DNA from: Dictyostelium discoideum
Taxonomy: Eukaryota
DNA: 64,000 nt
NCBI GenBank assembly: GCA_000004695.1
Contig: CM000151.3
Location: 7,040,001-7,104,000 of the forward strand
Direction of reading: 5' to 3'
Part shown: positions 1,142 to 60,435 of the stretch, one piece after another
Layout of the letters: every line of letters begins with the position of its first letter
Position numbering within the stretch: the first letter of the stretch is position 1
Program-made: the position numbers and the translations under genes
The notes under the pieces: generated by a model
Database searches by the model: none
What the model was told of the DNA's origin: nothing
Seen by the model: the letters and a program-made list of their open reading frames with translations, nothing else

Positions 1142-1686
1142 TTTAATGATTTTTTAATTTTTTTAATTATTTGTTTTGGGAAATATATTTTTTAATTATA
1201 TGTTTTGTAAATATTGATTGATTTTAATAATTTAATTTTTTTTTTTTTTTAATTTATACAAAAATTTTATTAATTATTTGTTTTTATTTTATTATTTTTT
1301 TCATTTTTTTTTTTTTGTTTTTTACTTTAATTTTCAGTTTTCATTTGAAAATCGCAAAACTAAAACGATTTTTCTTTAGAATTAACCAGATCCGGTTGTG
1401 ATTTGAAATTTTAAATAAATTAAATGATAATTAGGTTACAACATAAAATCATAAATATCACAACATTACATCTTTTTTCAAACAAGATTTTATTATTTTT
1501 TTTTTTTTAAAAAATAAATTAAATGAAACAACACAAATTTCAGTTTTTTTTTTTTTTTTTTTAAAAATTATTTTTTTATTCTTTTTTTTAATTTAAAATC
1601 TTTGGTCGGTCCATTTTTAATAAATAAGTTTTTTTTTTATGATTCGTTCTTTAAATAAATTTTCAAATGGTTTTTTTTTTTTTTTT

Positions 1687-2852: not shown

Positions 2853-3593
2853 TTAGTTAATTTTTGGAATTTTGTTAAGTAATGATTTTAATTTTGGTTG
2901 AGATAAACTAATATGAGAATTTAAGCAAATACTTGGTAATTGGAAGTTTGATGAATCAGCAGATGGTTGGTAATAGTAAAAGTTGGTTAATGAATTACCA
3001 CTTGGTGTGCCATTAGCATTTTGAGCAGATGCCGAGATTAATGAACAATCAGATTTATCAACAAAGAGATATTGATTTGTACTGTTACCTAAAATGCTTG
3101 GATACATAAACAAATCACATTCGACTGAACCTATTTCAGCATCACTAACATACTTTAAATTTTCAAAGATTGGAACAGAGTATGTCAATGTCTCTAAGAA
3201 ACAATATTCATTTCCGTTTAATTCAATATTAACATATTGAGTATTATTTCCATTGAAACCCCAAAGTTTACCTTTAGTTACAGAGTTTTCAGTATCCATT
3301 TCAAAATCAACATACAATTGTCCACCTACAAAATCAATATCAACTGTACCAGATTCCATATAAGATGTTTGAGTAATGTCTCCGTTTGAAGTTGGAGTAT
3401 TTGCATTAAATCCTATTTGAACAAATGAAGTAGAATAACCAGTTGGAAAGTTAGAACTTGATGTAAAACATTGTTGGCCAACTTTATTTTCAAGTTTCGA
3501 AAAATCAACATTATTATTTACACCCAATTTAAGGGATTCACCACAATTGAATGCAATTGTAAAAATTAAAATTAAAGATAATAATAATTTCAT
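2853..3593 (-). CDS. Secreted hypothetical protein, paralog 2 (246 aa).
   Basis: ORF about 98% identical to 401..1141. The C-terminal tail diverges with an in-frame 3-nt indel. Confidence 0.6.
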   Translation of the reverse strand: MKLLLSLILIFTIAFNCGESLKLGVNNNVDFSKLENKVGQQCFTSSSNFPTGYSTSFVQIGFNANTPTSNGDITQTSYMESGTVDIDFVGGQLYVDFEMDTENSVTKGKLWGFNGNNTQYVNIELNGNEYCFLETLTYSVPIFENLKYVSDAEIGSVECDLFMYPSILGNSTNQYLFVDKSDCSLISASAQNANGTPSGNSLTNFYYYQPSADSSNFQLPSICLNSHISLSQPKLKSLLNKIPKIN

Positions 3594-4160
3594 TTAAATG
3601 GTTTATTAATTTTTTTTAATTATTTGTTTTGTAAATTTATTTTTTTTTATTTATTGATTTTAATAATTTAATACTATTTTTTTTTTTTTTTTTTTAATTT
3701 ATACAAAAATTTTTTTAATTATTTGTTTTATAATTAATTGTTTTTTTTTTTGTTTTTTTTACTTTAATTTTCAGTTTTCATTTAAGAATAGAAAAACTTA
3801 AATGATTTTTCTTTAGAATTAATCATCACCATTTGTGATTTGAAATTTTTCAAACACATATTTTTTTTTTTTTATTTTGAAAATAGATATTTTTAGATCT
3901 TTGGTCTAAAAAAATAAGTTGAATAAAAAAGCATAAAACAAATTGCTATGATAAGGTTACAAAATAAAAAACCTTAAAATCCACGTCATTATGTTTTTTT
4001 TAATAATAAAGTAAAACAAAATTACAATTAAAATTTTTTTTAAAAATAATTTTTTTTATTCTTTTTTTATTTTATATATATGGTCGGCCCTTAAATAAAT
4101 AATTTTGGTTAAATGATTCGTCCTTTAATTAATTTTGTGGTTGTTTTTTTTTTTTTTTTT

Positions 4161-4284: not shown

Positions 4285-4384
4285 NNNNNNNNNNNNNNNN
4301 NNNNNNNNNNNNNNNNNNNNNNNNNNNNNNNNNNNNNNNNNNNNNNNNNNNNNNNNNNNNNNNNNNNNNNNNNNNNNNNNNNNN
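4285..4384. other. Assembly gap (100 N).
   Basis: Run of n. Confidence 1.
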
Positions 4385-4546: not shown

Positions 4547-5092
4547 AAAAAGAAAAAAAAAATAATTAATGTACGAACTTTTTTTAAAAATTAAATTCTT
4601 TGGGCGACATTTTTAGTAAATTAAATAACCGAATTAAATTTATAAAAAAATAAAAAATACTTTTTAAATTAAAATACACTTTTTTTGAAATTAACCAATT
4701 TCATTTTTTTTAATCTTCTGTTGAATACTTTCCCTATTACTTCTTGATCAATAATTTTCAATTCACCAATTAATGGCAAATGGAAAAAATTAAATTGAAT
4801 AGCCTGAAATAACCTGTGTTTATTTTTTAAAAAATATTTGTTATTAATATTTTTTGTGTGTTGTTGGTGGTGTTTTGTTTAATTGAGATTTTTTAATTGA
4901 TTAGGGAACTAAAATTCTTTTAAATTGTTTGTTTACATAAACATTCCCATTCTTTTATACATGTTTAATTCATATATTCCTCATTAAAAAAATATTAATA
5001 AAAAAAAAAATAAAAAAAACTGATAGGAATAATTATTTTTTTTATATATACAATTTATCATTCGATTTTATTTTTTTTTTTTAAAATACTGA

Positions 5093-6688: not shown

Positions 6689-6885
6689 AATCTTGTTAAA
6701 TATATTTAAATAATTAAAAACAAATAATAAATCTTGGGCGACTTTAAATTACAATAAAAATAATCGAATTTATATATATGTATATATTTTATTTATTTAT
6801 TATGAATTACAATGGTTTTTTTTTTTTTTTTATTAATTTATTTTTTTTTTTTTTTTTTTTTTTTTCCTAATAATTTTATTTGATT

Positions 6886-25410: not shown

Positions 25411-28329
25411 CAATTTTTTTTTTTTAAATTTTTTTCAATTTTTATTTGTTTATTAAAATGTAATTTTATTTTTTGTTTTAATTATTATTTTATTTATTAT
25501 TATTGTTAATTTTTTTTTTTTTTCAATTTTTTTTTTTTTAATTTATTTTTATTAATTTATTTTTATTAACTCCCTGAGTTGTTCAATTGCTTGATTTACC
25601 ATATCACTGTAAACACTGCACACAATTGAATTTTTTCTAGCTTTGTTACCTCTGGTGCATTTGATGTTTTTGCATTTTCCTTTGTATACAAAAAAGTCCA
25701 AATATAATTCGTTTTCTATTACAGTTTTTACACAATGTTGGTGAAATTGTTTTGATTTTAATTCTAATGCTTCTAACATCATATTTGAATTTTTAACGAT
25801 TAAAGCATCACCACTATTTACATATAGTACTTTGGCTGCTTTTTCGAGGAATTTAGTCAAATTTTCCTCTGAATCTAACTATTCTTCATTGCCATATTCA
25901 ATGGCTAAATTTCTTAAGAGTTTTATCGAATCTATTAATTCTTCGATCATTCTTTTTTTTTGAAATTTTTTTTTATTTTGTTTTTTCAATTTTTTTTTTT
26001 TATTTTGTTTTTTCAATTTTTTTTAAGTTTTATTTTTTTTTATTTTTTTTTATTTTTTTTAACAAATGTAATTTTTTTTTATTTTTTTCAATTTTTTTTT
26101 TTTTTAATTTTTAATTTTTTTTTTTTTTTTTAATTTTTTGTGTTGATTTGTGTTTTTTTTGTTTTTTTGATTTGGCCACTTGTTTTTATTTTCTAATTTC
26201 CCCATACCCCCTTCTATTAATTGCAACCAAATCAAGTTCTAATTTTTGTGTCCTTGTTGACTTTGTTTTTGCAACTTTTTTTGAAGGTATCACATTAACG
26301 ATTTTTCCTATTGATGGTGATTTGGAAGGTGATTTAAATGGTGATTTAAATGGTGAATTGGAAGGTGATTTAAATGGTGAATTGGAAGGTGAAATGGATG
26401 GTGATTTGGAAGGTAATTTAAATGGTGATTTGGAAGGTGATTTAAATGGTGATTTAAATGGTGAATTGGAAGGTGAAATGGATGTTGATTTGAGAGGTGA
26501 TTTGGATGTTGATTTGAGAGGTGATTTGGATGGTTTAGAATGTGATTTTAAAGGAGGTTTATTAACAATTGGTATCTTATGAGGACGGCCTCTGAGACGT
26601 TTAACAGTTGTTACTATACCACTACCAGATTGTGGTATAGTATATGATGGTATTATTTGCACTTGAGGTATTGGTGGTACTATTTCTTTTAAATTCATAT
26701 CCTTTCTCAAACAATTCATTAAATTTGGCGCTGTTGGATTATTATTTAAAAATGGGAGTATTTCTTCTTGTTCCATTTCATTATTGAGTTTGTGTTGAAA
26801 TGGATTATCGTTAATGATAGGTGGAATATTTGATGGATTGTTAAGAGCATCTTCCAAAACCCTAAATGGATCATTTTGTGTTACCAATTGATGCAAGTTG
26901 AAATTGGATAAATCCTTACCAAGATTTTTAATAAACTGAACCAGAAATTCAATAACTTTCCCATCATTATTTAAATAAAGACCAGAAGTAAAAGAATCAA
27001 TATCTTTTTGTATGTTTGGCGATGTTCTAAAAATATCAACTGTTGATTGTTTATAAAGAACCAACTTGTTACCTCCTACAAAACCAGAGTATAAACCTTT
27101 TTTTTGAAGGCTATTGATTCCATCTTCCAAAAATTCAAGTTTATAAAGTTGTTTAGTGTCTTCCTGTATTACCTTATGAATTTTACACAAAATCAATATT
27201 TTCTATTAGAATTAAATATAAAATTTGTTAATTATTACTGTTTCATATATTATTAATCTTTATGTTTTAATTACTTACATTATTTTTTTTAATTTCTAGA
27301 AAGAGTACAGTATCACCAACTTTCAATCCCTTTGGTGGTTTTGAATTCCATTGATTTTGGTAACTTGTGAGATTTTCAAGAATAATAGCTGTTCTTTCTT
27401 CTTTTGAAACATCTGAAACACCAATTGATTGAGAGTCTTGTTCTGATTGAACATTAATAAACAAAGGAACAATACCAACAGCTTGAGATGGTGTCATTTT
27501 AATTGTTCTTGTTTTTGTATTATTGTAATCATACAAAGCTTGTTTTAATAGTTCAGAAAGAGACCTAGAAGTACCATCAAGAAAACTAAAATTTATTTAT
27601 AAATGATTAATTAATAAACATATCGATAATTTATATTGTTCAAAATATCATACTCTTGTTGTTTTAATTTTGAGATCCTCTCCTTGATAGTTCGATTCAA
27701 TCTTTCTACCATACCTTGAGTTGTTGGTGTACGAGGAGCTCCATGTGCTGACTTGGAGCCTGGAAAAAGTTTTAGGAATTCTTTTTGGACTTTGTTTTTA
27801 AATTCACGTCCATTATCGCAGTGCCATACTTTCACAGAGTTTTAATATAAAAGTTACAAAACATCATATAAAAAATGATTGATACCAAACCTTTTATTCT
27901 ATTTCGTTGGCAAATGTCACACGTATCTACTGCATCAGATACAAAAGAATACAATCCCATATTATAATATTTAGTCTTGTAGTTCCCATAGGTTGCATCT
28001 CTTCCTATATGACCTTTATGCATTTCTTCCCAGAGTGATACCATTCTATAATCATTAATTACTTCTAAACACACTTCTTTTGATATATTTCTATCTCCGC
28101 CACAATTCATGACTTTTTTTTCAATTCTAAATAATTTTTCTTTTCTGTTTCTGTTTTTTATTGGTCAGAATTTAAAAAATGATTGTGTTATGGTAAGGAA
28201 AAATATTTACTCATCATGTAAAAATTTATAATTTTTATGTTTAGTATTTTCAAAATTATTATCTTCAATAAATTTTAAATAATTTATAATTTCATTTATT
28301 TTATCTTGTTTCATTTTGGGAAAATGAAA

Positions 28330-28364
<35 letters not shown>

Positions 28365-28837
28365 TGTTGGGGAAAAAAAAAAAAAATTTTGGCGCAAAAA
28401 AAAAAAAAAAAAATAAAATAAAAAAAAAAAAAAATAAAATAAAAAAAAAAAAATAAAAAAACTTAAATAGAACTAATAATCAAATAAAAGATAATAATTT
28501 AATAAACTTTATTTGTTTTTTGAAAAAAAAAAAAATTTAGGGTCAGTGATTTTTTTTTTTCACTACGCTACTGTAGTGAAATTAAATAATAAAATTCACT
28601 ACGCTACTGTAGTGAAATTTTATTGAAAATTCCCTACAACATTAAATATTAATTTTTTTTATTTTAATTTTTATATTAGAATCATTAATTTCCATTTCAT
28701 TCGAATCATCAGAAGTATCCTCAAACTTTGCTCAATTAAATAATGGTGTCTGTTTTTCTTCATGTAAAAGTGCAATTGAATTAAAAAGCAGTCAAACATC
28801 AACATTCTTTACAAGACCAAATTTCTATCATATTTAA
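25122..28837 (+). CDS. Small-family gene T. Exon 1 25122..25131 (ATGTTATTCA); the intron is split by the transposon insertion; exon 2 28680..28837. MLFKSLISISFESSEVSSNFAQLNNGVCFSSCKSAIELKSSQTSTFFTRPNFYHI.
   Basis: Exon 1 plus GTATGT lie 45 nt before the left TIR. Acceptor tattag lies 38 nt after the right TIR. Exon 2 is in frame with a diverged tail. Probably inactivated. Confidence 0.5.
25175..25320. repeat. Left terminal inverted repeat of the DDT-A-like element; contains two copies of the sub-terminal palindromic motif CACTACAGTAGCGTAGTGA.
   Basis: Reverse complement matches 28496..28641. Confidence 0.8.
25552..28313 (-). CDS. Transposase (retroviral-integrase-like; zinc finger, DDE core, C-terminal basic SPxK repeats), split by short introns. 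Exon fragments about 28214..28313 (possible first exon), 27832..28110, 27611..27835, 27267..27536, 26186..27196, 25552..25937.
   Basis: HKGHIGRDATYGN…CDICQRN (HHCC). WHCDNGREF…GAPRTPTTQGMVERLNRTIKE (rve-like). RGRPHK plus KSPSKSPFKSP repeats. Exact exon joins not resolved. Confidence 0.6.
26320..26530. repeat. ~15-bp tandem repeat (ggtgatttaaatggt-like, ~14 copies) inside the transposase 3' region. Encodes S-P-(F/L)-K-S repeats on the minus strand.
   Basis: Direct reading. Mirrored as GDLNG repeats in the antisense track ORF 26148..26582. Confidence 0.7.
28496..28641. repeat. Right terminal inverted repeat of the DDT-A-like element.
   Basis: Reverse complement of 25175..25320. Confidence 0.8.
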
Positions 28838-28951
28838 AGACCAAACTGAATTATTCATTAAAAATTGTCCGACATATAAATAATCCACACCATTAAATAA
28901 AATAAAATTTTTTTATATTTGATTTTTTAAATACACCTTAAAAAAACAAAT

Positions 28952-28995
<44 letters not shown>

Positions 28996-29334
28996 CCTTA
29001 ATCTAAATTAATTATATAAAATTGATATCATTATAAAAATAAAGATATATTTTATATATTTATTTAATATCATTATTTTAATTATTAAGTAAGGTATTAA
29101 ATCTGTATCCAAAATCACCAAAAACACCAAATCGGAATTGGGGGGAGAGACAAGGGTTTTTCACGTGTTTTTAATTTTAAAAAAAAAAAAAAAAAAAAAA
29201 TATTAATTGATGTTTATATGTATATTAATTTGTTTTTTTATTAATTTTTTTCAAGTATGGGATCGGCCTTTGAAATAATTATTTTTAATTCGATTTTATT
29301 GTTTTTTTTTTTTTTCCCAGTTTTTTTTTTAATT

Positions 29335-29630
29335 TTAATAATTAATAAAATTTGGTCTGGTAAAGAAAGCTGTTCTCTTTAATGCACATTCAACATTTGT
29401 TGAGTAGTTAGAATCAAAGATTGAATTTTCCATAAAATCACGTGATGTATTTTTTGATTCGTTTGTTTTTGATAATAAAATTAATGATTCTATTTAATAA
29501 AATGAAATAATTATATTATTATAAAAAAATAATTATTATTATTATATTTTTTTTTTTTTATTCTTTTTTCTGTATTTTTTTACTATAAAACTAGGTTCTA
29601 ACATGTTGTTATTTACATACTTAATAACAT
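29335..29630 (-). CDS. Small-family gene F. Exon 1 29621..29630 (ATGTTATTAA), exon 2 29335..29489. MLLKSLILLSKTNESKNTSRDFMENSIFDSNYSTNVECALKRTAFFTRPNFINY.
   Basis: Splice and frame verified. Threonine codon ACC in place of ACA in the motif is a synonymous change. Confidence 0.55.
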
Positions 29631-30219
29631 TTTTTTTTAAAGGATTTTATTTAATTTAATTATTAAAATTAAAATTGTGATTTTTTTTTTTATTTTTTTT
29701 TTTTTTTCTTGACAAAAACTATTTATACTGATTTTTTTTTTTTTTTTTTTTTATAATTACCACATTTTCATCTTTAACCACATACATATAAAATTTGTAA
29801 ATAATTTTTTGTTTCTATTTTTAACAAAATTGTTTTTTTGGGTTTATTTTGACTACTTCTTAATAGATTTAAATTTTATTCCAATAAATTATATAGAATA
29901 ACAATAACTAGAAACATACAAATTCACATCTAAAATTAATTATTTCATTCCTTTTTTGAAATTTGAATATGTTTTATTTGAATTTAATAATAGTTTTTAT
30001 AATATAGTAATATTTAAGTTACAATGAGCAGAAATGCTTTTAAAATTTAATGAAATTTTAAAAAATAAAAAAATAAATGGGAAAAAAAAAAAAAAAATTG
30101 TTTTTAAAAGTTATTTATTTTTTTTATACTGTTTTATTTTTATTGTTTTTTTAAATCAAGTAAAATGTCGGCCTTGAATTAATTTTTTTGTTTAAATTTT
30201 TTTAGTTAACTTTTTCTTT

Positions 30220-30520
30220 TTAAAAGTTAATAAAGTTTGGTCTTGTAAAGAATGTTGAAGTACTTTTAATTGAGGTAATAAAATTTATGGATTCATTTGT
30301 TTTTTTATTTAAATCATTTGAAAAAGAAATCGTAGTTTCAATGTTTGTATTTTTTAAAGAAATTAATGATTCTATAATATTTAAAAAAATAAAAATAATA
30401 AATATTAATAATCAGAACTTGATTTTTTTTTTTTTTATTTTTTTTATTTTTTTTATTTTTTATTTTATTTTATTTTTTTTTATTTTATTTTATTTTTTTC
30501 AAAAACATACTTAATAACAT
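30220..30520 (-). CDS. Small-family gene G. Exon 1 30511..30520, exon 2 30220..30371. MLLKSLISLKNTNIETTISFSNDLNKKTNESINFITSIKSTSTFFTRPNFINF.
   Basis: Splice and frame verified. Confidence 0.55.
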
Positions 30521-31149
30521 TTTTTATTTGTTTATATATTTTTTTATTTTATTTGATTTGATTTTAATTTTTTTTTTTATTGTTCTATTTATATTTTTTT
30601 TTTTTATTTTTTTATTTTTTTTTTTATTTTTAAAAAATTTGTTTTTCATTTTTACTTTATTTATTTATTTTTAGCACACTTCACTCTACACACTACACAA
30701 TAAACAAATAAATAATTTTGTAAAAAGATTGTTGGTGCCATTTTTTTTTTTTTTACTCTTTTTTAAAAATTTTAATGTTATCGAAATATAATATAATTAT
30801 AAAAAATAGATTTAATTGTATTGTTAATAATAGATAGTTTTTAATAGTAATTTGTATAGAATCAACATTTAATAAATAATTTAATTTTATATGTTGTTAT
30901 ATAAAATATATAGATAAAATCAAGATCAAATGAAGTGCATTCAATTATTTCATATCATTCAATTTCTTCTTTTGCTTAAATAAAAAAAAAATAATAAAAA
31001 AAAAAAAAAAAAAAACATGTACATTCAATGTATTATTTCATAATCCAATTCTATATAATTTTTTAATATAGGATTGCCATCATTAATTTTAAACCATTTT
31101 TAAATATAAAATTAACAAGACACATATATCGATATCTTTCCCAAATAAG

Positions 31150-31207
<58 letters not shown>

Positions 31208-32163
31208 ATCTTTAATCCAATTTTTATTTTATTTTAACAATAAACAAATAAAAATAAAAATATTGGTAATATAGTTAAATTTAATTTCTTTACTTAAGTT
31301 TTTCCAAAATAAAATAAAAATAAAAATTTTAAAAATTCTTTCATTTTTTGGATTAATTTTAAAAATAAAAGAATAATGGCACCAAAGAATTTCTTATTTT
31401 TTTAATTTTTATTATTTTAATTATTTTTAATAATTTAATAATTTTTTGGAATAAAGAACATCGAAAATATTGTGTTTAAAACAAACTATGAATCTCCTTT
31501 ATTGCATTTATATAGATATCTCTTTTTATGTACACTAATAAAAATAATTCTTTTACTTTTAATTAAAAGTTTTATTTGATTATTTAGACAATAATGATCT
31601 GATAAATTGAATTTTGGTTCATTTCAAATATAATTAAAATAAAAGGAAACTTCAATGGTCTTGTGGTGGGTTATTGTTTTTTTAGTGTTAGATTTTGGGG
31701 TTTATTTTTAATTTTTTTTTTTTTTTTTTTATTCATTTATTTTTATTATTTTTTTTTTTTTATTTTTAATGTTTTTTTTCATATTATTAATAAAATTAAA
31801 AACCTATCTATTAGTAAAAGGAATTTTATCAGCAATTATTAGGGACATCAAATCTCACCAATGTTCTTTTTAAAGTTTAATTTAACAACAACCCACAATT
31901 TACAAATTTTTATATGATCATATTTTAATGTTGAACAAATAATTATTATTATTATTATTTTTTTTCTAGAAGAGGGTTAAACAAATAAATAAATAAAAAT
32001 AAAAATAAATAAAAATAAAAAAAAAAAAAATAATTAAAAATAAAAAATCTGGTAAAAAAAAAAAAACTATAAATATTTTTTTTTTTTTTTTTATATAAAG
32101 CATTAAACAAATCGAAAAAAACTAAATTTTTAACTATAAAAAAAATTAAATTTAAAAAAAAAA

Positions 32164-32186
32164 ATGTTAGCAAGTAAGTGTCTAAA

Positions 32187-32225
<39 letters not shown>

Positions 32226-32417
32226 AATCTAACTTTATCCTTTTTTTAATTAGAATCATTAATCTTCTCTAAAAACTCATCAAAGGCAGACAAAATTTTT
32301 TCAAATGATAAATTGACTGTTACTTCTTTTTCTTTAAATGCCACTTGCGAAAAAATTTCAGCTTCAACTACAACTTCTACCTCTATTTTTACAAGACCAA
32401 ATTTCTTGAACTACTAA
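32164..32417 (+). CDS. Small-family gene Ha. Exon 1 32164..32173 (ATGTTAGCAA, GTAAGT donor), exon 2 32254..32417. MLAKSLIFSKNSSKADKIFSNDKLTVTSFSLNATCEKISASTTTSTSIFTRPNFLNY.
   Basis: Splice and frame verified. Convergent with H. Confidence 0.55.
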
Positions 32418-32783
32418 AAAAAATATATAAATAAACTAAATATATTGGCCGACTATAAATTTAAAATTCTAATTTTAATTGTTTGTTTGTTTTTTTTTTT
32501 TAATAAATTTACCAATAATTTTATTAATTTAAATGATTTTATTAATTTAAATGATTTTCCTTTTAAAATTAAAAAAAAAACAATTTCATTTCTAATTAAT
32601 TTTTTTTATTAATTTTTTTTTTTCAAACCCTCCATTACCTTTTACTAAAAAAAAAAAAAAAAAAAAATTATCTTATTTTGGTTTTAATATATGTACATGT
32701 TTTTTTATTATTTATTTAAATATACAGTTTTTATATCAAGTATTTGTCGGCCTTGATATTTTATATTATTTTTTTATAAAATT

Positions 32784-33031
32784 TTAAAAATTTAAAAAAT
32801 TTGGTCTTGTAAAAAAAGAAGTTGCGTTCTTAATTGAAACAATTTCATTTTTTGAAAAGTTATTTAAAGGTGTTTCACTATGGATACAGTTTAATGAAGA
32901 TGAGTTTGTTTTGTTTGAAATTGAAATTAATGATTCTAAAATAATAATAAAAAAAAAATTAGAAATTATGTTTTGGAAAAAAGAAAAAAAATTGTTTTAA
33001 TATTCATTGCATTATACATACTTAATAACAT
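32784..33031 (-). CDS. Small-family gene H. Exon 1 33022..33031, exon 2 32784..32935. MLLKSLISISNKTNSSSLNCIHSETPLNNFSKNEIVSIKNATSFFTRPNFLNF.
   Basis: Splice and frame verified. Promoter module at 33140-33330 on the minus strand. Confidence 0.55.
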
Positions 33032-33555
33032 TTTATTATTTTTTTATATAGTTTTTTTATTTATTTCTAAATTTAGAATTTTTGTTTTATTTAAAATGAT
33101 TTTTTAATTAATAATGAATTATTTTTTTTAAACTATTTATATTTTTTTTTTTTTTTTAAGTAAAAGTATTCAAAAACCACTTTTATCTGTTAAATAATAA
33201 AATTTAAAAAATAATTGAACAGATGTTGTCGACATACACACACTCTCAATATAAAAATAGTGTTATCACAAACTTTAAAAGAAGTATGTGCGAATAGATT
33301 TTATTTAATATAGAATCATAAAACCAAAATGATATTTTTTATATATTGATTTTAAAAATAAAAAAAGCAATTTATTATTTTTAATAAATGAAGAAATAAA
33401 TTTAATTAATAAATAAATAATTTAAAAGGGTTGGTTTAAAAAATAAAATAATTATTTAATATGAACCAAAATTAAAAAATGAATTAATTTTGAATTTTTA
33501 TTGGAATAATTGAGTATACATATATTTTTAATTGAATATTAATAAAAGTGAAAAT

Positions 33556-33655
33556 NNNNNNNNNNNNNNNNNNNNNNNNNNNNNNNNNNNNNNNNNNNNN
33601 NNNNNNNNNNNNNNNNNNNNNNNNNNNNNNNNNNNNNNNNNNNNNNNNNNNNNNN
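33556..33655. other. Assembly gap (100 N).
   Basis: Run of n. Confidence 1.
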
Positions 33656-33879
33656 ATGTCATCATTTGTATTTTTAATTTATAGTGTCATTTTTAGATAT
33701 TCTTTTTTTTTTTTTTCAATTAAAACTGAAATTGTATGTTTATATATATCAGTGTTTTATTTGAAATAAAAAAATAATAATAATAAATGAAGTAAAAATA
33801 TTCAAACCACTTGTTGATGATATCCATTATTTAAGTAATCATTGTTGAAAACATATATTTGATATTGTTGTTGTCAAAA

Positions 33880-34257
33880 AAAAAATTAATATGATTTCAA
33901 CAAGATTAATAAAATAGTTTAAATTATATTATTATTCTTGTTGATATCATTATCCTTGTTTTTTTGTTTTTAAAAACAATTGTCTTTACTTGTATGTCAA
34001 CATAATATTTTTACAAAATTTAAACAATTAATAAAATTGTGTGTTTATTAAATAGTGGTGGTGGTAGGAAGTGGTTGGGGTGGGGTGGTGGGAAGTGGTT
34101 AAATTTTACTTAAAATAATTATTTCGATTTAAAAAATAAAATAGAATTTAAAAAAAAGTATAAATACTTTTTTTTAATTTTATTTTTTATATCAAACAAA
34201 CATTAAATTAAAAACAAAACAAAAACATTAATTAAAAACTATGAAACTATAAATAAA
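33880..34257 (+). promoter_or_regulatory. Conserved family promoter module, example for gene Ia. Elements TTGTTGATATCAT, TTGTATGTCAACATAATATTTTTACAAA, a G/T-rich GTGGTGG block, ATTATTTCGATTT, the TATA-like AGTATAAATAC, and TTTTTATATCAAACAAA just before the ATG.
   Basis: Alignable with 37230-37583 (Ka), 40190-40606 (M), and in reverse complement with 1950-2250 (A), 33140-33330 (H), 35270-35460 (I), 38930-39070 (K). Confidence 0.5.
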
Positions 34258-34497
34258 ATGTTATTCAGTATGTATTTTTAATAAAAAAAACAATGAAAAT
34301 ATCAATGAATATAATATTAATTTAATATTTTTTTTTTAAATTTAGAATCATTAATTTCATTATCAAATAAAAATACCACCTTAAATTCATCTTTAATTTC
34401 AAATCAAACAAACAATGATTGTAATGAATTTAAAAATGAAATTACAAACAAAAGTTCTACTGCATTCTTTACAAGACCAAACTTTGTAAACTATTAA
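34258..34497 (+). CDS. Small-family gene Ia. Exon 1 34258..34267, exon 2 34346..34497. MLFKSLISLSNKNTTLNSSLISNQTNNDCNEFKNEITNKSSTAFFTRPNFVNY.
   Basis: Splice and frame verified. Exon 2 is identical to Ka. Confidence 0.6.
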
Positions 34498-34584
34498 AAA
34501 AAAATATTATGATAAAAACAATTCCGATAAAAAACTTGTACAAACAATAAAATCTATTTATTTATTTATTTATTTATTTTAAAA

Positions 34585-34632
<48 letters not shown>

Positions 34633-34944
34633 CCTTGAGTGATTTTTAAAGTTGGTTTTAAATTAATTTTTTAAAACTATTGATTTTTTGATATTTTATC
34701 TTTATTAATATGTCTCCTTTGGATTTTATTATTTGCCCACTTTTTCATTTATAAAAGTAATTCGTTTTTTTATCAAATTTTACATAATTTTAAAATTTTT
34801 TTTTTTGTCAAACTTTTCCACAAATAAATAAAGAAAAAACAGAAAAATTATTTTTTAATTTTAAATAAATATATAAATATATTTTTTTTTTTAAATGTAC
34901 AATTTGTTTATCGGTATTAAAATTTTTTTTTTTTTTTTTTTTTT

Positions 34945-35189
34945 TTAATAGTTTATAAAGTTTGGTCTAGTAAAGAATGCAGTAGAACTTATGTTTGTAA
35001 TTTCATTTTTTAATTGATTACAATCATTGTTTGGTTGATAAGAAATTAAAGATGATTTTGAGGTGGTATTTTTATTTGATAATAAAATTAATGATTCTAA
35101 AAAAAAAAAAAAAAAATTCAAAATTAAAATCAACTTCATTATAATATATTTTTAATTATAATTTTTAAAATATACCTACTGAATAACAT
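34945..35189 (-). CDS. Small-family gene I. Exon 1 35180..35189 (GTAGGT donor), exon 2 34945..35096. MLFKSLILLSNKNTTSKSSLISYQPNNDCNQLKNEITNISSTAFFTRPNFINY.
   Basis: Track ORF 34945..35139 covers exon 2. Splice and frame verified. Confidence 0.6.
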
Positions 35190-35705
35190 TTTTTATTTTT
35201 ATAGTTTTATATTTAGTTTTTTAAGATTTTATAATGTTAACTTTGTTCGATATAATAAATTAAAAAAAAAAAAAAGTATTTATACTGTTTTTTAAATCGA
35301 AATAATTAAGTAAAATTTAGATAAACACCCACAACCACCACCACTATAGCACATTTTTTTAAAAATTATGTAAAATGATTATGTTGATATACAAGTAAAC
35401 AGTAAAAAAAAAACAAGTATAATGATATCAACAAGAATAATAGTTTAATTTATTAACAACATTTTAAAAATATGTTTCCAACATCCATTTTTTTAAAAAA
35501 GGACTTAAAATTTTATTTAATTAATTAAAAAAATAATACAATAAAATTGTTTACAACAAAATTTAATTTTAATTTTTATGATTATTTAAAAAAGAAAAAA
35601 ATAAATGATAATTTGTAAAAAAAAAAATAAAAAATTAATTCTAATTATCTAGAATAATTTATTTTACAATAGTTTTTTTAATAAAAAAAGTTATTTGGTT
35701 GTTTT

Positions 35706-35745
<40 letters not shown>

Positions 35746-35936
35746 AAGCTAAATTGAATTATTTATTTAAAAACCTTTTTTGAACTAATTATAATAATAA
35801 AAATCAAAATAGCTAAACTATTTCACTCAAAAAAAAAAAAAAATGAAAATAATTTTTAAATTTTTTAAATAAATAAATAAATAGTTTTTTATTTGTACAA
35901 GTTTTTGTCGGCAATATAATTTTTTCAATAATTTTT

Positions 35937-36085
35937 TTAATAGTTTACAAAGTTTGGTCTTGTAAAAAATGCAGTAGAACTTTTACTTGCAATTTCATTT
36001 TTGAATTCAATGCAATTATTATTTAATTGATTTGAAATTAATGATTTTGAGGTGGTGTTGTTATTTGATAATGAAATTAATGATT
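35937..36085 (-). CDS. Small-family gene J, exon 2 only; the intron and exon 1 run into the gap. …KSLISLSNNNTTSKSLISNQLNNNCIEFKNEIASKSSTAFFTRPNFVNY.
   Basis: Frame verified. Confidence 0.5.
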
Positions 36086-36119
36086 CTAATAAATAAAAAA
36101 AAAAAAAAAAATAAGTATA

Positions 36120-36219
36120 NNNNNNNNNNNNNNNNNNNNNNNNNNNNNNNNNNNNNNNNNNNNNNNNNNNNNNNNNNNNNNNNNNNNNNNNNNNNNNNNN
36201 NNNNNNNNNNNNNNNNNNN
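36120..36219. other. Assembly gap (100 N).
   Basis: Run of n. Confidence 1.
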
Positions 36220-37583
36220 ATAAATCATTTTATTTCATATTTATGTTTAAAATATGTACATGAAATCACAATAAACAAAACAACACCTATGTTTAATGAT
36301 TGTTTAAAAATTGTTGATTTAAGAAATGATTTGTATTGATTCTAATAAATTAAAATTTTAACCACAAAATAAAATCCTACCACAATTTATTCTTCCATTC
36401 CTTCTACTATACCCTAACCTATTTAATTATATATTCTAGAATTTGAATTTATTGTAAAATAGTGTTTATACTCCACCAACAAAAAGGATTTAAAAACTAT
36501 TTTAAAAATCATAAAGCTTTAAAACAAAATGTTTGAAATTATTATTTTAAAAGGTTTGGAAAAAAAAGAAAAGAAAAGAAAAAAGAAAATGATATTATTT
36601 ATTAAAAAGAAAAAAACAAAAAAACAAAAAAAGAAACAAACTAAATCAAAATAAACCAATTTAGAATATAATTAATTTCTTGTTTTTCTTTTTTTTTTCC
36701 AAACTTTTAAATTTAGAAAATAATTGATTTCTTGTTTTTCTTTTTTTTTTTAGAATCGCTGGTGTATTTATTTTTTTAATTATTTTATTTTTTGATTTTG
36801 TTTTAATTTATTTCTCTTTAATTTTACTTTTTTTTCGAGTTGCTGATAGCTATGCTATTTATTTTTATTTTATTTTACTTTTACCATTTCTCTTTTATTT
36901 TGTTCTTTTTTTTTTTTAATGAATTTTTTTTTTTTCATTGTTTTAAAAACTTTTAAAAATGAAAAAAAGTATAGGAAAAATGAGAATCATAAAAAACAGG
37001 ATGATGAATAAGTTTTGATCACTTATATTTTTTAAAATATAGTGCATTTTTACATGACATATTATTATATTTTTTAAATTTGAATTGAAAAATTATATAA
37101 ATGAAGAAAAAAAATGAAAATTAATTAATGATGATATCAATTTTAAAACAATGATTGTTGAAAACATACAATATTTATGATTTTTATATGGTAGTTGAAG
37201 AAAATTATTGATTAAAAAAATTATTATCTATTAATAAAAAGGTTTTAAATTATATTATTATTCTTGTTGATATCATTTTGCTTGGCTTAATTTTATATTA
37301 ACATTTAACTTTACTTGTATGTCAACATAATATTTTTACAAATTTTAATTTATTTAATTTATTAAATAATTGTGTGTTTATTAAGTAGTGGTGGAGGGGG
37401 GTGGGTGGTTGTGAGTGTGTGATTAAATTAATTATAACTAAAAATTATTTCGATTTTAAAATTAAAAAAAAAAACAGTATAAATACTTTTTTTAATTTTA
37501 ATTTTTTATATCAAACAAAAATCATTAATTAAAAACTAAAGTTAAATAAATTAAAAACTATAAAAAAAAAATATATTTATAAA

Positions 37584-37839
37584 ATGTTATTCAGTATGTA
37601 TTTTTTTTTTTATTTTTTTATTAGAATTATTTTTTAAAAATATCAATGAATTTAATATTAATTTAATATTTTTTTTTTTAAATTTAGAATCATTAATTTC
37701 ATTATCAAATAAAAATACCACCTTAAATTCATCTTTAATTTCAAATCAAACAAACAATGATTGTAATGAATTTAAAAATGAAATTACAAACAAAAGTTCT
37801 ACTGCATTCTTTACAAGACCAAACTTTGTAAACTATTAA
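37584..37839 (+). CDS. Small-family gene Ka. Exon 1 37584..37593, exon 2 37688..37839. Product identical to Ia.
   Basis: Splice and frame verified. Promoter 37230-37583 is paralogous to 33880-34257. Confidence 0.6.
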
Positions 37840-38493
37840 AAAAAAAAATAATATGATATAAACAATGCCGATAAAAAACTTGTATATTTAATAAAAAAAA
37901 TTAATTATTTATTTATTTATTTATTTAAAAATAAAACCAAATTTTTTATTTTTTTATTTTTTTTTTTTTATTTTTTTTTTTATTTTTTTGAACATTTTCT
38001 ATCCTGACCCTGCAAATATAGCACCAAAAAAAAAAATTTAATTCAAAAAAAATAAATTTAAATAAAATTAAATGTTTTTTGAACTTCGTTTTTTTTTTTA
38101 TTTTATATAAATTTTTTTTTTTTTTGGGTACTTTTGTTCACTTTTTTCTTTTTATTTTTATACTTAAAATCTTTCAAAAAAAAAAGAAAAAACAAAAATT
38201 GATCAAATAATGAACTTAATATATTTCTTACCAAAAAATAAATAATAATAATAATAATAACGATAAAAATAATACTCAGTTCTTATTTTACATATGTAAC
38301 CTTTTTATTTTTTTAGATAATTTGTCATAATTATTATTTTTATTATTATTATTTAAAGTTTAAAAAAAAAAAAAGAAAAAAAAAAAAAATTTTAGTTTTT
38401 TTAATTAAGTTTTGTTTATTAATTTTAATTTATTTTACAAGTAAAGTTCGGCCATGTAAATTTATATATATATATAAAGTTTTTCGTTTTTTT

Positions 38494-38736
38494 TTAATAA
38501 TTTACAAAATTTGGTCTTGTGAAAAAGGCAGTTGGACTCTTCATTGTAATAGAATTATTTGTAGTACTAATTGAATTTATATTATTAGATTCAATTGAAC
38601 TTGATAATGATGATGAATTTTTGTTTGATAATGAAAGTAAAGATTCTATTTAAAAAAAAAAAAGTAAATTAATTAATACAATGACTTTAAAAATTTTTTT
38701 TTTTTTTTTTTTTTTTTTCAACTTACTGAATAACAT
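38494..38736 (-). CDS. Small-family gene K. Exon 1 38727..38736, exon 2 38494..38645. MLFKSLLSLSNKNSSSLSSSIESNNINSISTTNNSITMKSPTAFFTRPNFVNY.
   Basis: Splice and frame verified. Confidence 0.55.
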
Positions 38737-39601
38737 TTTAAATTATAGTATATTAATATAGTTTTTATATTTGTTTTTTTATTTATTTAATTAATAAAAT
38801 TTTTTTTTAATGATTAAAATAATTTTTTTTTTTTTTATTTATACTTTTTTTTTTATTTTTAGTTTAAACATTTAATATAACCCCCAAAAAACCACTTAAT
38901 AACACTAATAACAAATTTGTAAAATAGATGTTGTCGACATACATGTGTTTTAAAAATTAAAAGGTTTTTTTGATAAACACACACACATTAAAAGAAGAGA
39001 TTTTATTATTTTAATTAAAAGATAATTTTAAAAAATGTAGATATGGTATCAACATCATTTTCTTTTTGACAAAAATAAAAATAATTATTTTAAATTTTAA
39101 TTTTTAATGATTATATAATTATTTACCCGCTCATTGATCACTATTTTTTTCCAAATAATTGTTATCATCATTTTTAAAATCAATTTTCTTCTTTTATAAG
39201 TTTTTTATTTTATTTTTATAATAATTTTAATTTTCTTAAGGAGTATTAATATGGATATAATAACAATATAATTGATTTTTAAAGTAAATCAAGTAAAATA
39301 AAAATAACAAAATTTCTTCATTTACTTTATTTATTTTAAAAATAAAAAGGTTTTTTATTTAATTTTAAAAAATTATAACATCATCCTTTTTTAAAATAAA
39401 AGAAGATAAAAATGATGAAATTATTTTATTATTTTTTACTTAATGATGTATTATCTTAGGGGACATCAAATTGAGAAAAAAAAAAAAAAATTATTTAAAT
39501 TAAAAATTTTATTCTTTTTTTTTTTTTTTTTTTTTTCTTTCCTTAAATTTATATAAAAACTTAAAAACTAGAACTTCTAAAAATAAATAAAAGAAATTAA
39601 A

Positions 39602-39843
39602 ATGCTATTTGGTATGTTAAAATTAATTTTATATAATTGGTTGATATTTATTTATTAATATTTTAAATTTTAGAATCAATTAAATTAAACATAAAAATAA
39701 ATAATTCTTTAAATGAATGTTCAAATTTATTAATTAGTGAAAATAATAAACATTCATTATATATTAATTCATTAAATACAATTACAACTAGAAATCAAAC
39801 TAGTAGCTTTTTTTTTTCTAGACCAAATTTCCAATGTTTTTAA
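39602..39843 (+). CDS. Small-family gene L, divergent. Exon 1 39602..39611 (ATGCTATTTG), exon 2 39674..39843. MLFESIKLNIKINNSLNECSNLLISENNKHSLYINSLNTITTRNQTSSFFFSRPNFQCF.
   Basis: Splice and frame verified. The promoter does not align with the others. Confidence 0.45.
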
Positions 39844-40309
39844 AAATAGATAACTAATTGTTAATTTACATTAAGAATAATTGTTCGAATAACTCAATAT
39901 TTAATTATTATTATGAATTAAATCATTTTTAATTTTAGAAAAAATAATAATTTATAAAAAAAATAGTAAAAATAAAAAATAAATTATTATTATTAAATTT
40001 CCAAAATCATACTTCATTTTTTTGATAATAACAATAATAATTATTTTGACAAAAAAAAAAAAAAAAAAATTGATAATTATTTCTTTTTGATAAACAAAAA
40101 TTAAAGTTGATATCAATAAATTTATTAGCCGGACAATTATTCAATATATTTTAAAAAATCAAATATCTAAAATATAAATCTTGATTTTAATAAATGTTGA
40201 TATCATACATATTATTTCTGCTTCTCATATAAATTTAAAAATAGCAACATATTCAATTTACAAATATATTTTATTTTTCAATCTATAGATTTATCAATTT
40301 TTTATTTTT

Positions 40310-40349
<40 letters not shown>

Positions 40350-40606
40350 ACCCATAGTAAAGAAGGGGTCAATTTTTAATTATCAAGTTATACGATTATT
40401 TCTATTTTAATTTTTATTTTATTTTTATTTTTATTTATTATTTTACTTTAATCAAAAAAAAAAAAAAAAAAAAAGTAAATATAAATAGTATTTTTTTTTT
40501 TTAAAAAAATAAATACTTAAAAATAAATCACAAATCAAAACATTAATTAATATAAATTATTAAAAAAAAAAAAAGAAAAATATTAAAAAAATAAATATAT
40601 TTTAAA

Positions 40607-40847
40607 ATGTTATTCAGTATGTATTTTAAATTAATTTTATTTCATTGTAAATTATAAATAATAAATATTAATTATTTTTATTTTTTTTTTTAAAATAGAA
40701 TCATTAATTTCATTATCAAACAATGTTTCAAAAGTTTCAACATTAATTTCAGTTGAAAACAATGAAAATTCTATAAATACTACAACAAATACTATAACAT
40801 TAAGAAGCACAGTCTTCTTTACAAGACCAAATTTTATTAATTATTAA
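40607..40847 (+). CDS. Small-family gene M. Exon 1 40607..40616, exon 2 40699..40847. MLFKSLISLSNNVSKVSTLISVENNENSINTTTNTITLRSTVFFTRPNFINY.
   Basis: Splice and frame verified. Confidence 0.55.
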
Positions 40848-41016
40848 TTAAAAAAATAATTTATATATAAAAACAAAACATGGCCGAAATTTACATGTTT
40901 TAAAAAAAGTTAACGAAATAAAATCCTTTTGATTATAAAAAAAAAAATAAAAAAAAAAATTATATGTTTTCTTTGTATTTTTATTTTTTATTTTTTATTT
41001 TATTATTTTATTATTT

Positions 41017-59599: not shown

Positions 59600-60435
59600 A
59601 GGTATGTAAAAAGAATCCAAATCTTAAATATGATTCTACACTTATTAAGTTGTCCAAGGAAACAGTATTCAACTTGGAATGTGGAAACCAGGAACATTTG
59701 GTGTTTGGGGTGAAATGTATTCTGTTATTCTCAAAAAAGAAGACTGGGCAGCACATCATCACCTTAGAAATGTTTACTTTTTCTTTGATAATGATGGTGA
59801 TAAATATTGAAATGATGCTAATAGATTAGATTTTTTAGATATGACTTAAATCTAAACTTCTAAATCAAACTTTTAAAAATAAATTTAATTTTACTTTTAT
59901 ATTCTTGAGTCTATCAATTCGAGAGGATATTTTTTTTTTATTTTTTAAAAGTTTAAAAATTTTGGTCCTGAAAAAGTGATTTTCTTTAAAAAATACAATT
60001 CCATTATAATTTGAATAATTAAATCAATTTTTAATTGACTAACCACCACCCGAATATTAAAATCATTTATTAAGATCCAATTCTTAAATTTGATACTCAA
60101 ATTGTAAAGTAACAGTATTCAACTAGGGATGTGGAAACCAGGAATATTTGGTGTTTGGGGTGAGATGTTCTCATAAAAGAAGACTGGGCATCTCGACACA
60201 ATCGTGTAAATTTTTACTTTTTCTTTGATAATGATGGTGATAATTATTTCAATTTAGATGCTAACAGATTGGAGTTTAACTTTCAATCAAACATCATCAT
60301 CAAACATATTTAAAAAAAAATTATGGAATAAATTTAATTGTTTAAATTAATTTTTATCAATTTATATATATTTATATTTTTTATTTGATTTTTATATTTA
60401 ATTTTATATTATTAAGTCGACCAATTCGAGAGGAT

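Follow-up and report, generated by a model that had tools for sequence, protein, structure and literature searches.

A family-specific GC island linked to AATAAA in the 3' flanks of a Dictyostelium microgene family

Background

The 3' UTRs of Dictyostelium are 85-90% A+T, and the recognition of signals in such sequence is a puzzle; we know of very little on the cis-elements that they carry. The locus studied here raises this question in a concrete form: a short GC-containing motif recurs downstream of the small genes of one family, and it could be a 3'-UTR element, a terminator or the boundary of an amplified unit, as the original prediction had proposed. The DNA analysed (the window) is a stretch of 64,000 nucleotides from chromosome 2 of Dictyostelium discoideum AX4, with a G+C content of 14-33%, whose other genes include those for a class I myosin, HMG-CoA reductase and an NPC1-like protein.

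Results and discussion

The microgene family and the orientation of its genes

We observed 18 copies of the family, along with one decayed copy, in the window, as defined by an anchor 17-mer, TTTACAAGACCAAATTT, which at up to three mismatches yields 19 matches against 4.1 expected. The genes have two exons and code for a protein of about 53 aa (MLFKSLIS…FFTRPNFVNY). Every copy with complete sequence displays the same layout: TATAAATA(C/G), about 90 nt, AAAATGTTATTCA followed directly by GTATGT, an intron of 70-100 nt, TAG followed directly by AATCATTAATTTC, a variable middle, and finally TTTACAAGACCAAAYTTTNTNAAYTAYTAA. The two ends of the protein, MLFKSLIS and FFTRPNF(V/I)NY, are conserved, and the Ser/Asn/Thr-rich middle held between these fixed termini is hypervariable, suggesting that selection on that region is relaxed or diversifying. 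Pfam matched no family to these proteins, and the 36 proteins recovered by a profile search with the family protein, from D. discoideum, D. cf. discoideum, D. citrinum, D. firmibasis and D. purpureum, are all annotated as hypothetical, uncharacterised or 'expressed protein'. Between D. discoideum and D. firmibasis, orthologous proteins share only 54-84% identity, and the 3' flanks share 75-88% (window against the D. firmibasis loci L122 and L124).

The orientation first assigned to the genes is the correct one: they show an AAAATG start, a GTATGT or GTAAGT donor, a TAG acceptor, a frame kept across the intron and TATAAATA upstream. Hence, the GC motif truly lies 3' of the family genes. An open antisense frame (…FGLVK…EINDS) raised the possibility of genes on the opposite strand, which is ruled out by the splice signals, the AAAATG context, the conserved reading phase and TATAAATA; it is also contradicted by the spliced product of one small gene in the window, which is 100% identical to the annotated AX4 gene DDB_G0276707 (chromosome 2, 8,484,197 bp). 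Our search of the literature returned nothing on GGCCGAC in Dictyostelium, nor on 13 of the 14 family gene IDs; the only mention of DDB_G0276707 comes from a G-quadruplex survey and concerns its promoter (PMC6511855).

A GC island with a CGA core follows the stop codon of every copy

A CG dinucleotide, always as CGA, is present 29-81 nt past the stop codon in all 18 copies, which upholds the prediction of a GC-containing motif 25-100 nt after the stop of most of them. CG is rare in the family units (1-6 per 860 nt). The heptamer GGCCGAC, with at most one mismatch, has 22 matches in the window against 4.5 expected, a count reached by none of 100 shuffles, and 13 of the 22 lie on the same strand as the family anchor and 43-95 nt 3' of it. 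In an alignment anchored on CG, positions -3 to +3 (GGC-CGA-C) carry 1.1-3.6 bits each over a background below 0.5 bit, and a weaker conserved block, (A/C)CTTG, occupies +9 to +13. The island is always on the sense strand, in flanks that cannot otherwise be aligned; across the first 110 nt of 39 family flanks, 53 of the 55 CG dinucleotides belong to CGA.

The motif might simply have been as dense in unrelated DNA. This is not the case: CCGA reaches 6.6/kb in the family 3' flanks and 0.13/kb in other AT-rich DNA. None of the 46 ends of non-family long ORFs in the same DNA carries the motif, and only 7 have any CGA. A metagenome scan with TTYACWAGACCAAAYTTY yielded 120 loci, all of them chance matches in unrelated DNA. 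The decayed copy (59945-60100, minus strand) reads GATAGAC where its neighbour has GGTCGAC, the heptamer thus being lost. This nineteenth copy ends in …FSGPKFLNF*, has no recognisable start or intron, and keeps CTCGAAT in its 3' flank.

The interval that prompted this work lies between the convergent genes Ha and H. Its features are the following (motif offsets here are measured to the C of CGA, with the first base of the stop codon as origin):

32164-32417, plus strand: family gene Ha; exon 1 from 32164, ATGTTAGCAA followed by GTAAGT; exon 2 from about 32253; stop codon 32415-32417
32447-32453, plus strand: Ha main motif GGCCGAC, 35 nt past the stop, linear and without a hairpin; context TTGGCCGACTAT at 32445-32456 (plus strand)
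32502-32507, plus strand: first AATAAA past the Ha motif, 52 nt from the CGA core
32784-33031, minus strand: family gene H; ATG at 33031, stop codon 32786-32784
32729-32762, minus strand: predicted H stem-loop AUAUCAAG-GCCGACAAAUA-CUUGAUAU, -7.4 kcal/mol, z -4.0
32746-32752, minus strand: H heptamer, in ATCAAGGCCGACAAATACTTGAT / ATATCAAGGCCGACAAATACTTGATAT
32711-32716, minus strand: first AATAAA past the H motif, 33 nt from the CGA core

The pair had been said to carry two inverted motif copies about 300 bp apart, and this proved accurate, with the heptamers 299 bp apart in a gap of 366 bp between the convergent stops. The sequences first quoted for Ha and H also stand as given; that of copy 4544 is CTTTGGGCGAC and not CTTGGGCGAC, and that of copy N had been quoted in antisense.

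Beyond this pair, the copies without the hairpin discussed below display a series of variants:

1605-1611, minus strand: copy 1689, A-type motif GGACCGACC (heptamer GACCGAC); ACGAAT 38 nt upstream, at 1641-1649
4083-4089, minus strand: copy 4163, A-type motif GGGCCGACC; ACGAAT at 4115-4123
4602-4608, plus strand: copy 4544, B-type GGGCGAC; AACCGAATT 25 nt downstream, at 4627-4635
5059-5067, minus strand: copy 5095, AATCGAATG as sole island, no GGCCGAC
6736-6742, plus strand: copy 6686, B-type GGGCGAC; AATCGAATT 26 nt downstream, at 6762-6770
28867-28873, plus strand: copy 28835, GTCCGAC; the D. firmibasis orthologue also has GTCCGACATA
34522-34528, plus strand: copy 34495 (DDB_G0276707), C-type TTCCGAT (AAAAAACTTGTACA)
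34910-34916, minus strand: copy 34947, C-type TACCGAT
35907-35913, minus strand: copy 35939, C-type TGCCGAC
37866-37872, plus strand: copy 37837, C-type TGCCGAT
39883-39891, plus strand: copy 39841, GTTCGAATA, the most degenerate island; TTCCGAC in the D. firmibasis orthologue
60416-60431, minus strand: copy 60467, CTCGAATTGGTCGAC, in which CGAAT adjoins GGTCGAC (60416-60422)

Conservation of the island among paralogues and species

We compared the window with three D. firmibasis loci (L122, which is syntenic with the window, L124 and L126), one of D. cf. discoideum (L123), one of D. purpureum (L121) and a second assembly of D. discoideum (L127). An island with a CGA core is present in 49 of 49 copies from D. 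discoideum (two assemblies), D. cf. discoideum, D. firmibasis and D. purpureum. The D. purpureum copy bears GCCCATCGATCGAGCTTGTAAATAAA 64 nt past the stop, and two near-identical tandem copies of L127 carry a mutated heptamer and retain the CGA in CGAAT or as ACGAC. Because the D. firmibasis flanks are 75-88% identical overall, comparison with that species footprints only weakly, and recent tandem copies share their whole flanks. The distant paralogues are more telling: BLAST homology among them begins at the TATA box and gives out only 4-18 nt after the stop codon, and the spacer from stop to island has a roughly 3-fold range within the window and spans 20-110 nt across all copies. The island therefore stands alone in diverged sequence. 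These sequence comparisons indicate that the element is real, conserved and family-specific.

The same data speak against the idea that the motif marks the boundary of an amplification unit, for in the hairpin subfamily homology between paralogues extends 100-140 nt past the motif, and among distant paralogues it has already ended at the stop codon. Neither does the unit resemble a transposon or MITE ending in the motif, as its opposite end carries different promoter blocks instead of the matching terminal repeat that such an element would have. By the same token, it is very improbable that the island is a neutral remnant or edge of a duplicated unit kept by kinship alone: all copies are paralogues, making the enrichment over unrelated DNA partly trivial, and recent tandem copies have whole flanks in common, but the island survives 4-fold changes of spacer length in unalignable flanks, is retained in D. 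purpureum, is flanked in one subfamily by stems that show compensatory changes, has subfamily homology continuing 100-140 nt beyond it, and has lost its heptamer in the sole decayed copy.

The island is coupled to the following AATAAA

Among 39 copies, AATAAA piles up at +10 to +39 nt from the core, with 11, 18 and 10 occurrences per successive 10-nt bin (26-46/kb), as against 0-10/kb (mostly below 5) upstream of the core and mostly 3-7/kb beyond +90. The hexamer occurs within 60 nt past the core in 33-34 of the 39, at a median of 22 nt, and between the stop and the core in only 7. The standard deviation of its distance is 10.7 nt when measured to the core and 23.0 nt when measured to the stop; hence, AATAAA travels with the motif and not with the coding region. 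What is new here is this link of the family's 3' island to the poly(A) hexamer. Provided that the AATAAA which follows is the signal used, we infer that the island lies in the distal 3' UTR. Its position between the stop and AATAAA supports the suggestion of a 3'-UTR element or terminator, and we regard it as a predicted 3'-UTR cis-element with a candidate role in mRNA stability, localisation or 3'-end formation. UGUA is found within 40 nt past the core in 14 of the 39 copies, and in some of them UGUA or UGUAUA falls between the island and AATAAA.

A hairpin presents the island in one subfamily

The short inverted repeats with hairpin potential that had been noted around the motif are a trait of one subfamily, comprising 5 of the 18 window copies (H, G, 29337, M and 38496) and five D. 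firmibasis copies (7763, 10235, 7020, 603 and 2665), and do not extend to the family at large: the hairpin is absent from 13 of the 18 window copies. When single 3' flanks were folded, only 3 of 18 were better than dinucleotide shuffles (mean z -0.26), and a 3'-arm swap among 39 copies gave p = 0.055. The two members of the convergent pair exemplify the extremes, with Ha at -0.8 kcal/mol (z +0.4) and without a hairpin, and H at -7.4 kcal/mol (z -4.0) in sense as against -5.4 kcal/mol (z -1.3) in antisense. The other predicted stem-loops of the window are:

30149-30183, minus strand: copy G (stop 30222), AAUUCAAG-GCCGACAUUUUA-CUUGAUUU; heptamer 30167-30173
40872-40905, plus strand: copy M (stop 40845), AAAACAUG-GCCGAAAUUUA-CAUGUUUU; heptamer 40882-40888
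38430-38463, minus strand: copy 38496, UUUACAUG-GCCGAACUUUA-CUUGUAAA, with one U.U mismatch and AAUAAA directly after; heptamer 38447-38453
29244-29278, minus strand: copy 29337, bulged, UUUCAA(A)G-GCCGAUCCCAUA-CUUGAAA; heptamer 29262-29268

The subfamily hairpin has a stem of 7-8 bp and a loop of 11-12 nt, GCCGA-N4-5-UA. Its stems vary in sequence (AUAUCAAG, AAAACAUG, UUUACAUG, GUUCAAG and others), yet remain complementary, the outer pairs being A/U only. In the 10 copies, 87.5% of the stem cells are paired versus 67.5% in shuffles (0 of 500), 17 cells are altered on both sides versus 8.0±2.0 (0 of 500), compensatory change affects 5 of the 8 stem pairs and the covariation score is 0.461 versus at most 0.167 for all slid registers, values that are inflated by the choice of the 10 copies by eye and by their non-independence, since they include four clear orthologous pairs and an uncertain fifth. 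RNAalifold independently predicts the identical helix. A covariance model built from the 10 copies scores those 10 alone at 37-47 bits, with other family flanks at 19 bits or less, and found no matches outside family flanks in 149,634 bases. Thus, in this subfamily the flanking arms covary as would an RNA-type stem, which adds to the case for an element acting as RNA.

A second motif accompanies the island in subsets of copies

A second motif, with CGAAT at its heart, had been placed 20-40 nt further on in several copies. Its enrichment is genuine, about 10-fold (3.8/kb in family 3' flanks versus 0.37/kb in other AT-rich DNA), but the fixed downstream placement is not, as it occurs on either side of the main motif. 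Copies 4544 and 6686 have it 25-29 nt downstream (40845 has a weaker ACGAAA there), and copies 1689, 4163, 29337 and 60467 have it 9-38 nt upstream; in copies 5095 and 39841, CGAAT is the sole island. In L127, most members of the 10-copy A-type array have the upstream arrangement, ACGAATCAT-N~22-GGGACCGACC, and GGGACCGACC is kept in 8 of the 10. The CGA core is the common denominator of the main motif and CGAAT, and the bipartite layout is a trait of subsets, not of the whole family. A tRNA or external B box (GGTTCGAATCC) was considered for these motifs and rejected: ARAGORN found no tRNA gene in the window, and the CGAAT motifs lack the GGTTC half.

Likeness to known 3' elements

Rfam gave no matches over the whole window at gathering thresholds, and none at the element at E<=5 over 28500-41000. 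Of the systems with which the island may be compared, the upstream auxiliary elements of poly(A) sites (UGUA/CFIm, viral USEs and yeast UAUAUA) are like it in position, 10-40 nt upstream of AATAAA, and in constrained spacing to the hexamer. They are unlike it in being U/A-rich and genome-wide, whereas the island is a GC element with a CGA core (only 14 of 39 copies have UGUA within 40 nt), is confined to one family (none of 46 other gene ends has the motif) and is partly displayed in a hairpin loop.

The histone 3' stem-loop (RF00032) is likewise a family-specific stem-loop soon after the stop of clustered multicopy genes, with a conserved loop and a covarying stem. Its stem is a GC-rich one of 6 bp and its loop has 4 nt, as opposed to the AU-rich stem of 8 bp and the loop of 11-12 nt seen here, and it takes the place of a poly(A) signal, whereas here AATAAA follows; the RF00032 model matched no family 3' flank. 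With AATAAA after the stem-loop, the family mRNAs are presumably polyadenylated. As for structured RNAs in general, compensatory base pairs are found in the 10-copy subfamily, and a structure in all members is not.

The zipcodes bound by She2p have a CGA triplet in the loop, and She2p is restricted to budding yeast; Smaug elements have a CNGG loop. By analogy, both of these types of protein-binding 3'-UTR hairpin combine a variable stem with invariant loop bases, as the family element may with its invariant CGA; there is no homology, the family element has no CNGG loop and most family copies have no stem. A further analogy may be drawn with the Sal box bound by Reb1/TTF-I factors, also a short GC-containing, GGTCGAC-like box in fixed orientation at the 3' end of a transcription unit. 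The variants GGTCGAC, GGACCGACC and GTCCGAC recall the core of the mouse Sal box, GGTCGACC. Those factors, however, act on duplex DNA and mostly with Pol I, GGTCGAC is found in only one window copy, and their model leaves the stem covariation and the coupling to AATAAA unexplained.

How the island might act

The module as a whole has a regular order: the stop, an A-rich spacer of 20-110 nt, (T/A)GGCCGAC, often ACTTG(T)A, AATAAA 10-40 nt later, and T-runs. We lean, tentatively, towards the reading that the island is a family-specific distal 3'-UTR cis-element which would act as one module with the poly(A) signal and contribute to defining the 3' end. A sequence-specific protein would read the island on the transcript, with the hairpin subfamily displaying GCCGA at the 5' side of the 11-12-nt loop closed by a stem of 7-8 bp. 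The bound protein would mark the authentic cleavage and polyadenylation site among many chance A-rich hexamers, and such marking might end transcription before a very close neighbour. The stop-to-stop gaps in the five convergent family pairs are about 370-650 bp, and about 170-200 bp separate copies 40845 (M) and 6686 from the non-family genes that they face. We infer from sequence that the island is transcribed and bound by a protein, with an effect on 3'-end formation rather than on another fate of the mRNA. Against this reading, use of the element was not seen outside the family in about 150 kb, which would be odd for general 3'-end machinery. As descent fixes the orientation of the island with respect to its gene, orientation does not distinguish a function in RNA from one in DNA.

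Also possible, and nearly as plausible, is that the element acts after processing, with a dedicated RNA-binding protein co-regulating the stability, translation or localisation of the family as a regulon; the closeness of AATAAA would then merely reflect a 3' UTR that ends soon after its last functional element. Such co-regulation would explain the strict family specificity better, given that none of the 46 other gene ends has the motif and that the covariance model found nothing else in 149,634 bases, and regulatory hairpins that bind proteins typically have a conserved loop on a covarying stem. The promoter blocks common to the family also suggest co-regulation, and the UGUA found within 40 nt of the core in 14 of 39 copies partly resembles Pumilio sites. 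Conversely, a regulon does not require the narrow coupling to AATAAA (SD 10.7 nt), no binding protein is known, and most copies are without the hairpin.

A site acting in DNA is unlikely in our estimate. It would be a roadblock terminator of the Myb/Reb1/TTF-I type or an insulator, and the same factor might bind the GTCGAC block of the promoter. The universal feature is indeed a short linear GC island and not a structure, the GGTCGAC-like variants recall the Sal box, the promoter blocks of H and 38496 carry ATGTCGACAACAT, resembling the 3' GCCGACAA, and densely packed, often convergent genes need termination. Yet compensatory changes in a stem would have no role in a duplex-DNA site, the narrow range of distances to AATAAA suggests action on the transcript, and the strict CGA core recurs in two contexts (CCGAC and TCGAAT). 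A promoter element of the neighbouring gene is ruled out, as the island is present in five convergent pairs with no promoter downstream.

It is conceivable, though decidedly a long shot, that this lineage-specific, fast-evolving microprotein family has its own 3'-end module, made up of the CGA-core island or stem-loop and AAUAAA and read by one dedicated factor, which perhaps also reads the promoter GTCGAC block. The start and the end of each unit would then be linked, and packed convergent copies insulated from one another. A GC island of 7 nt at a set distance from AATAAA, found in at least four species and absent from the other genes examined, makes a clean case for study. Its natural series of variants (linear, hairpin and one decayed copy) offers a direct handle on how poly(A) sites or mRNA fates are specified in an extremely AT-rich genome, and gives reason to look at a little-studied family of proteins of about 53 aa.

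Promoters and neighbouring sequence

Upstream of TATAAATA, the family promoters display (TTTACT)TGTATGTC(G/A)ACAACAT, then TTTTACAAAAT, a G-rich box and then TCGATTT. These shared blocks are seen in H (33226-33239) and 38496 (about 38925-38960) and upstream of 1689, 34495, 34947, 37837, 5095 and 6686. The block CATGTATGTCGACAACATCTATTTTACAAATT shows no difference between D. discoideum 38496 and its D. firmibasis orthologue, and GTCGACAA within the promoter block resembles the 3' GCCGACAA. The only Rfam match at E<5 in 28500-41000, a sub-threshold one to the Histone3 model at 38958-39003 (plus strand) in the promoter of copy 38496, scores 18.1 bits against a gathering threshold of 34 (E 0.81) and is most likely due to chance. 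G-rich runs (GGTGGTGG…GGGGTGGGGTGG) occur in the promoters of 34495 (about 34150-34250) and 37837 (37420-37470), and the run near copy 37837 is a match to p14, a G-quadruplex that PMC6511855 reports for the promoter of DDB_G0276707. Such G-rich promoter boxes suggest that the family is regulated post-aggregatively.

Three runs of exactly 100 N, at 4285-4384, 33556-33655 and 36120-36219, are assembly gaps. The first sits between two inverted, apparently overlapping family copies (stops 4163, minus strand, and 4544, plus strand), which suggests an inverted repeat left unresolved by the assembly. At the edge of the family cluster, at 27267-28110 (minus strand), ORF fragments with sequence resembling a retroelement integrase (HCDNGREFKN…) probably represent a degraded retrotransposon. 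An ependymin-like gene of 246 aa and an A-type family copy are duplicated in tandem as a unit of about 2.4 kb, with 84% identity over about 1.4 kb; both ependymin-like genes (401-1141 and 2853-3593, minus strand) have TTAATTTCGAATAATAATAA 12 nt past the stop. The second D. discoideum assembly (L127) has ependymin-like and HSP20 genes in alternation with its 10 A-type copies.
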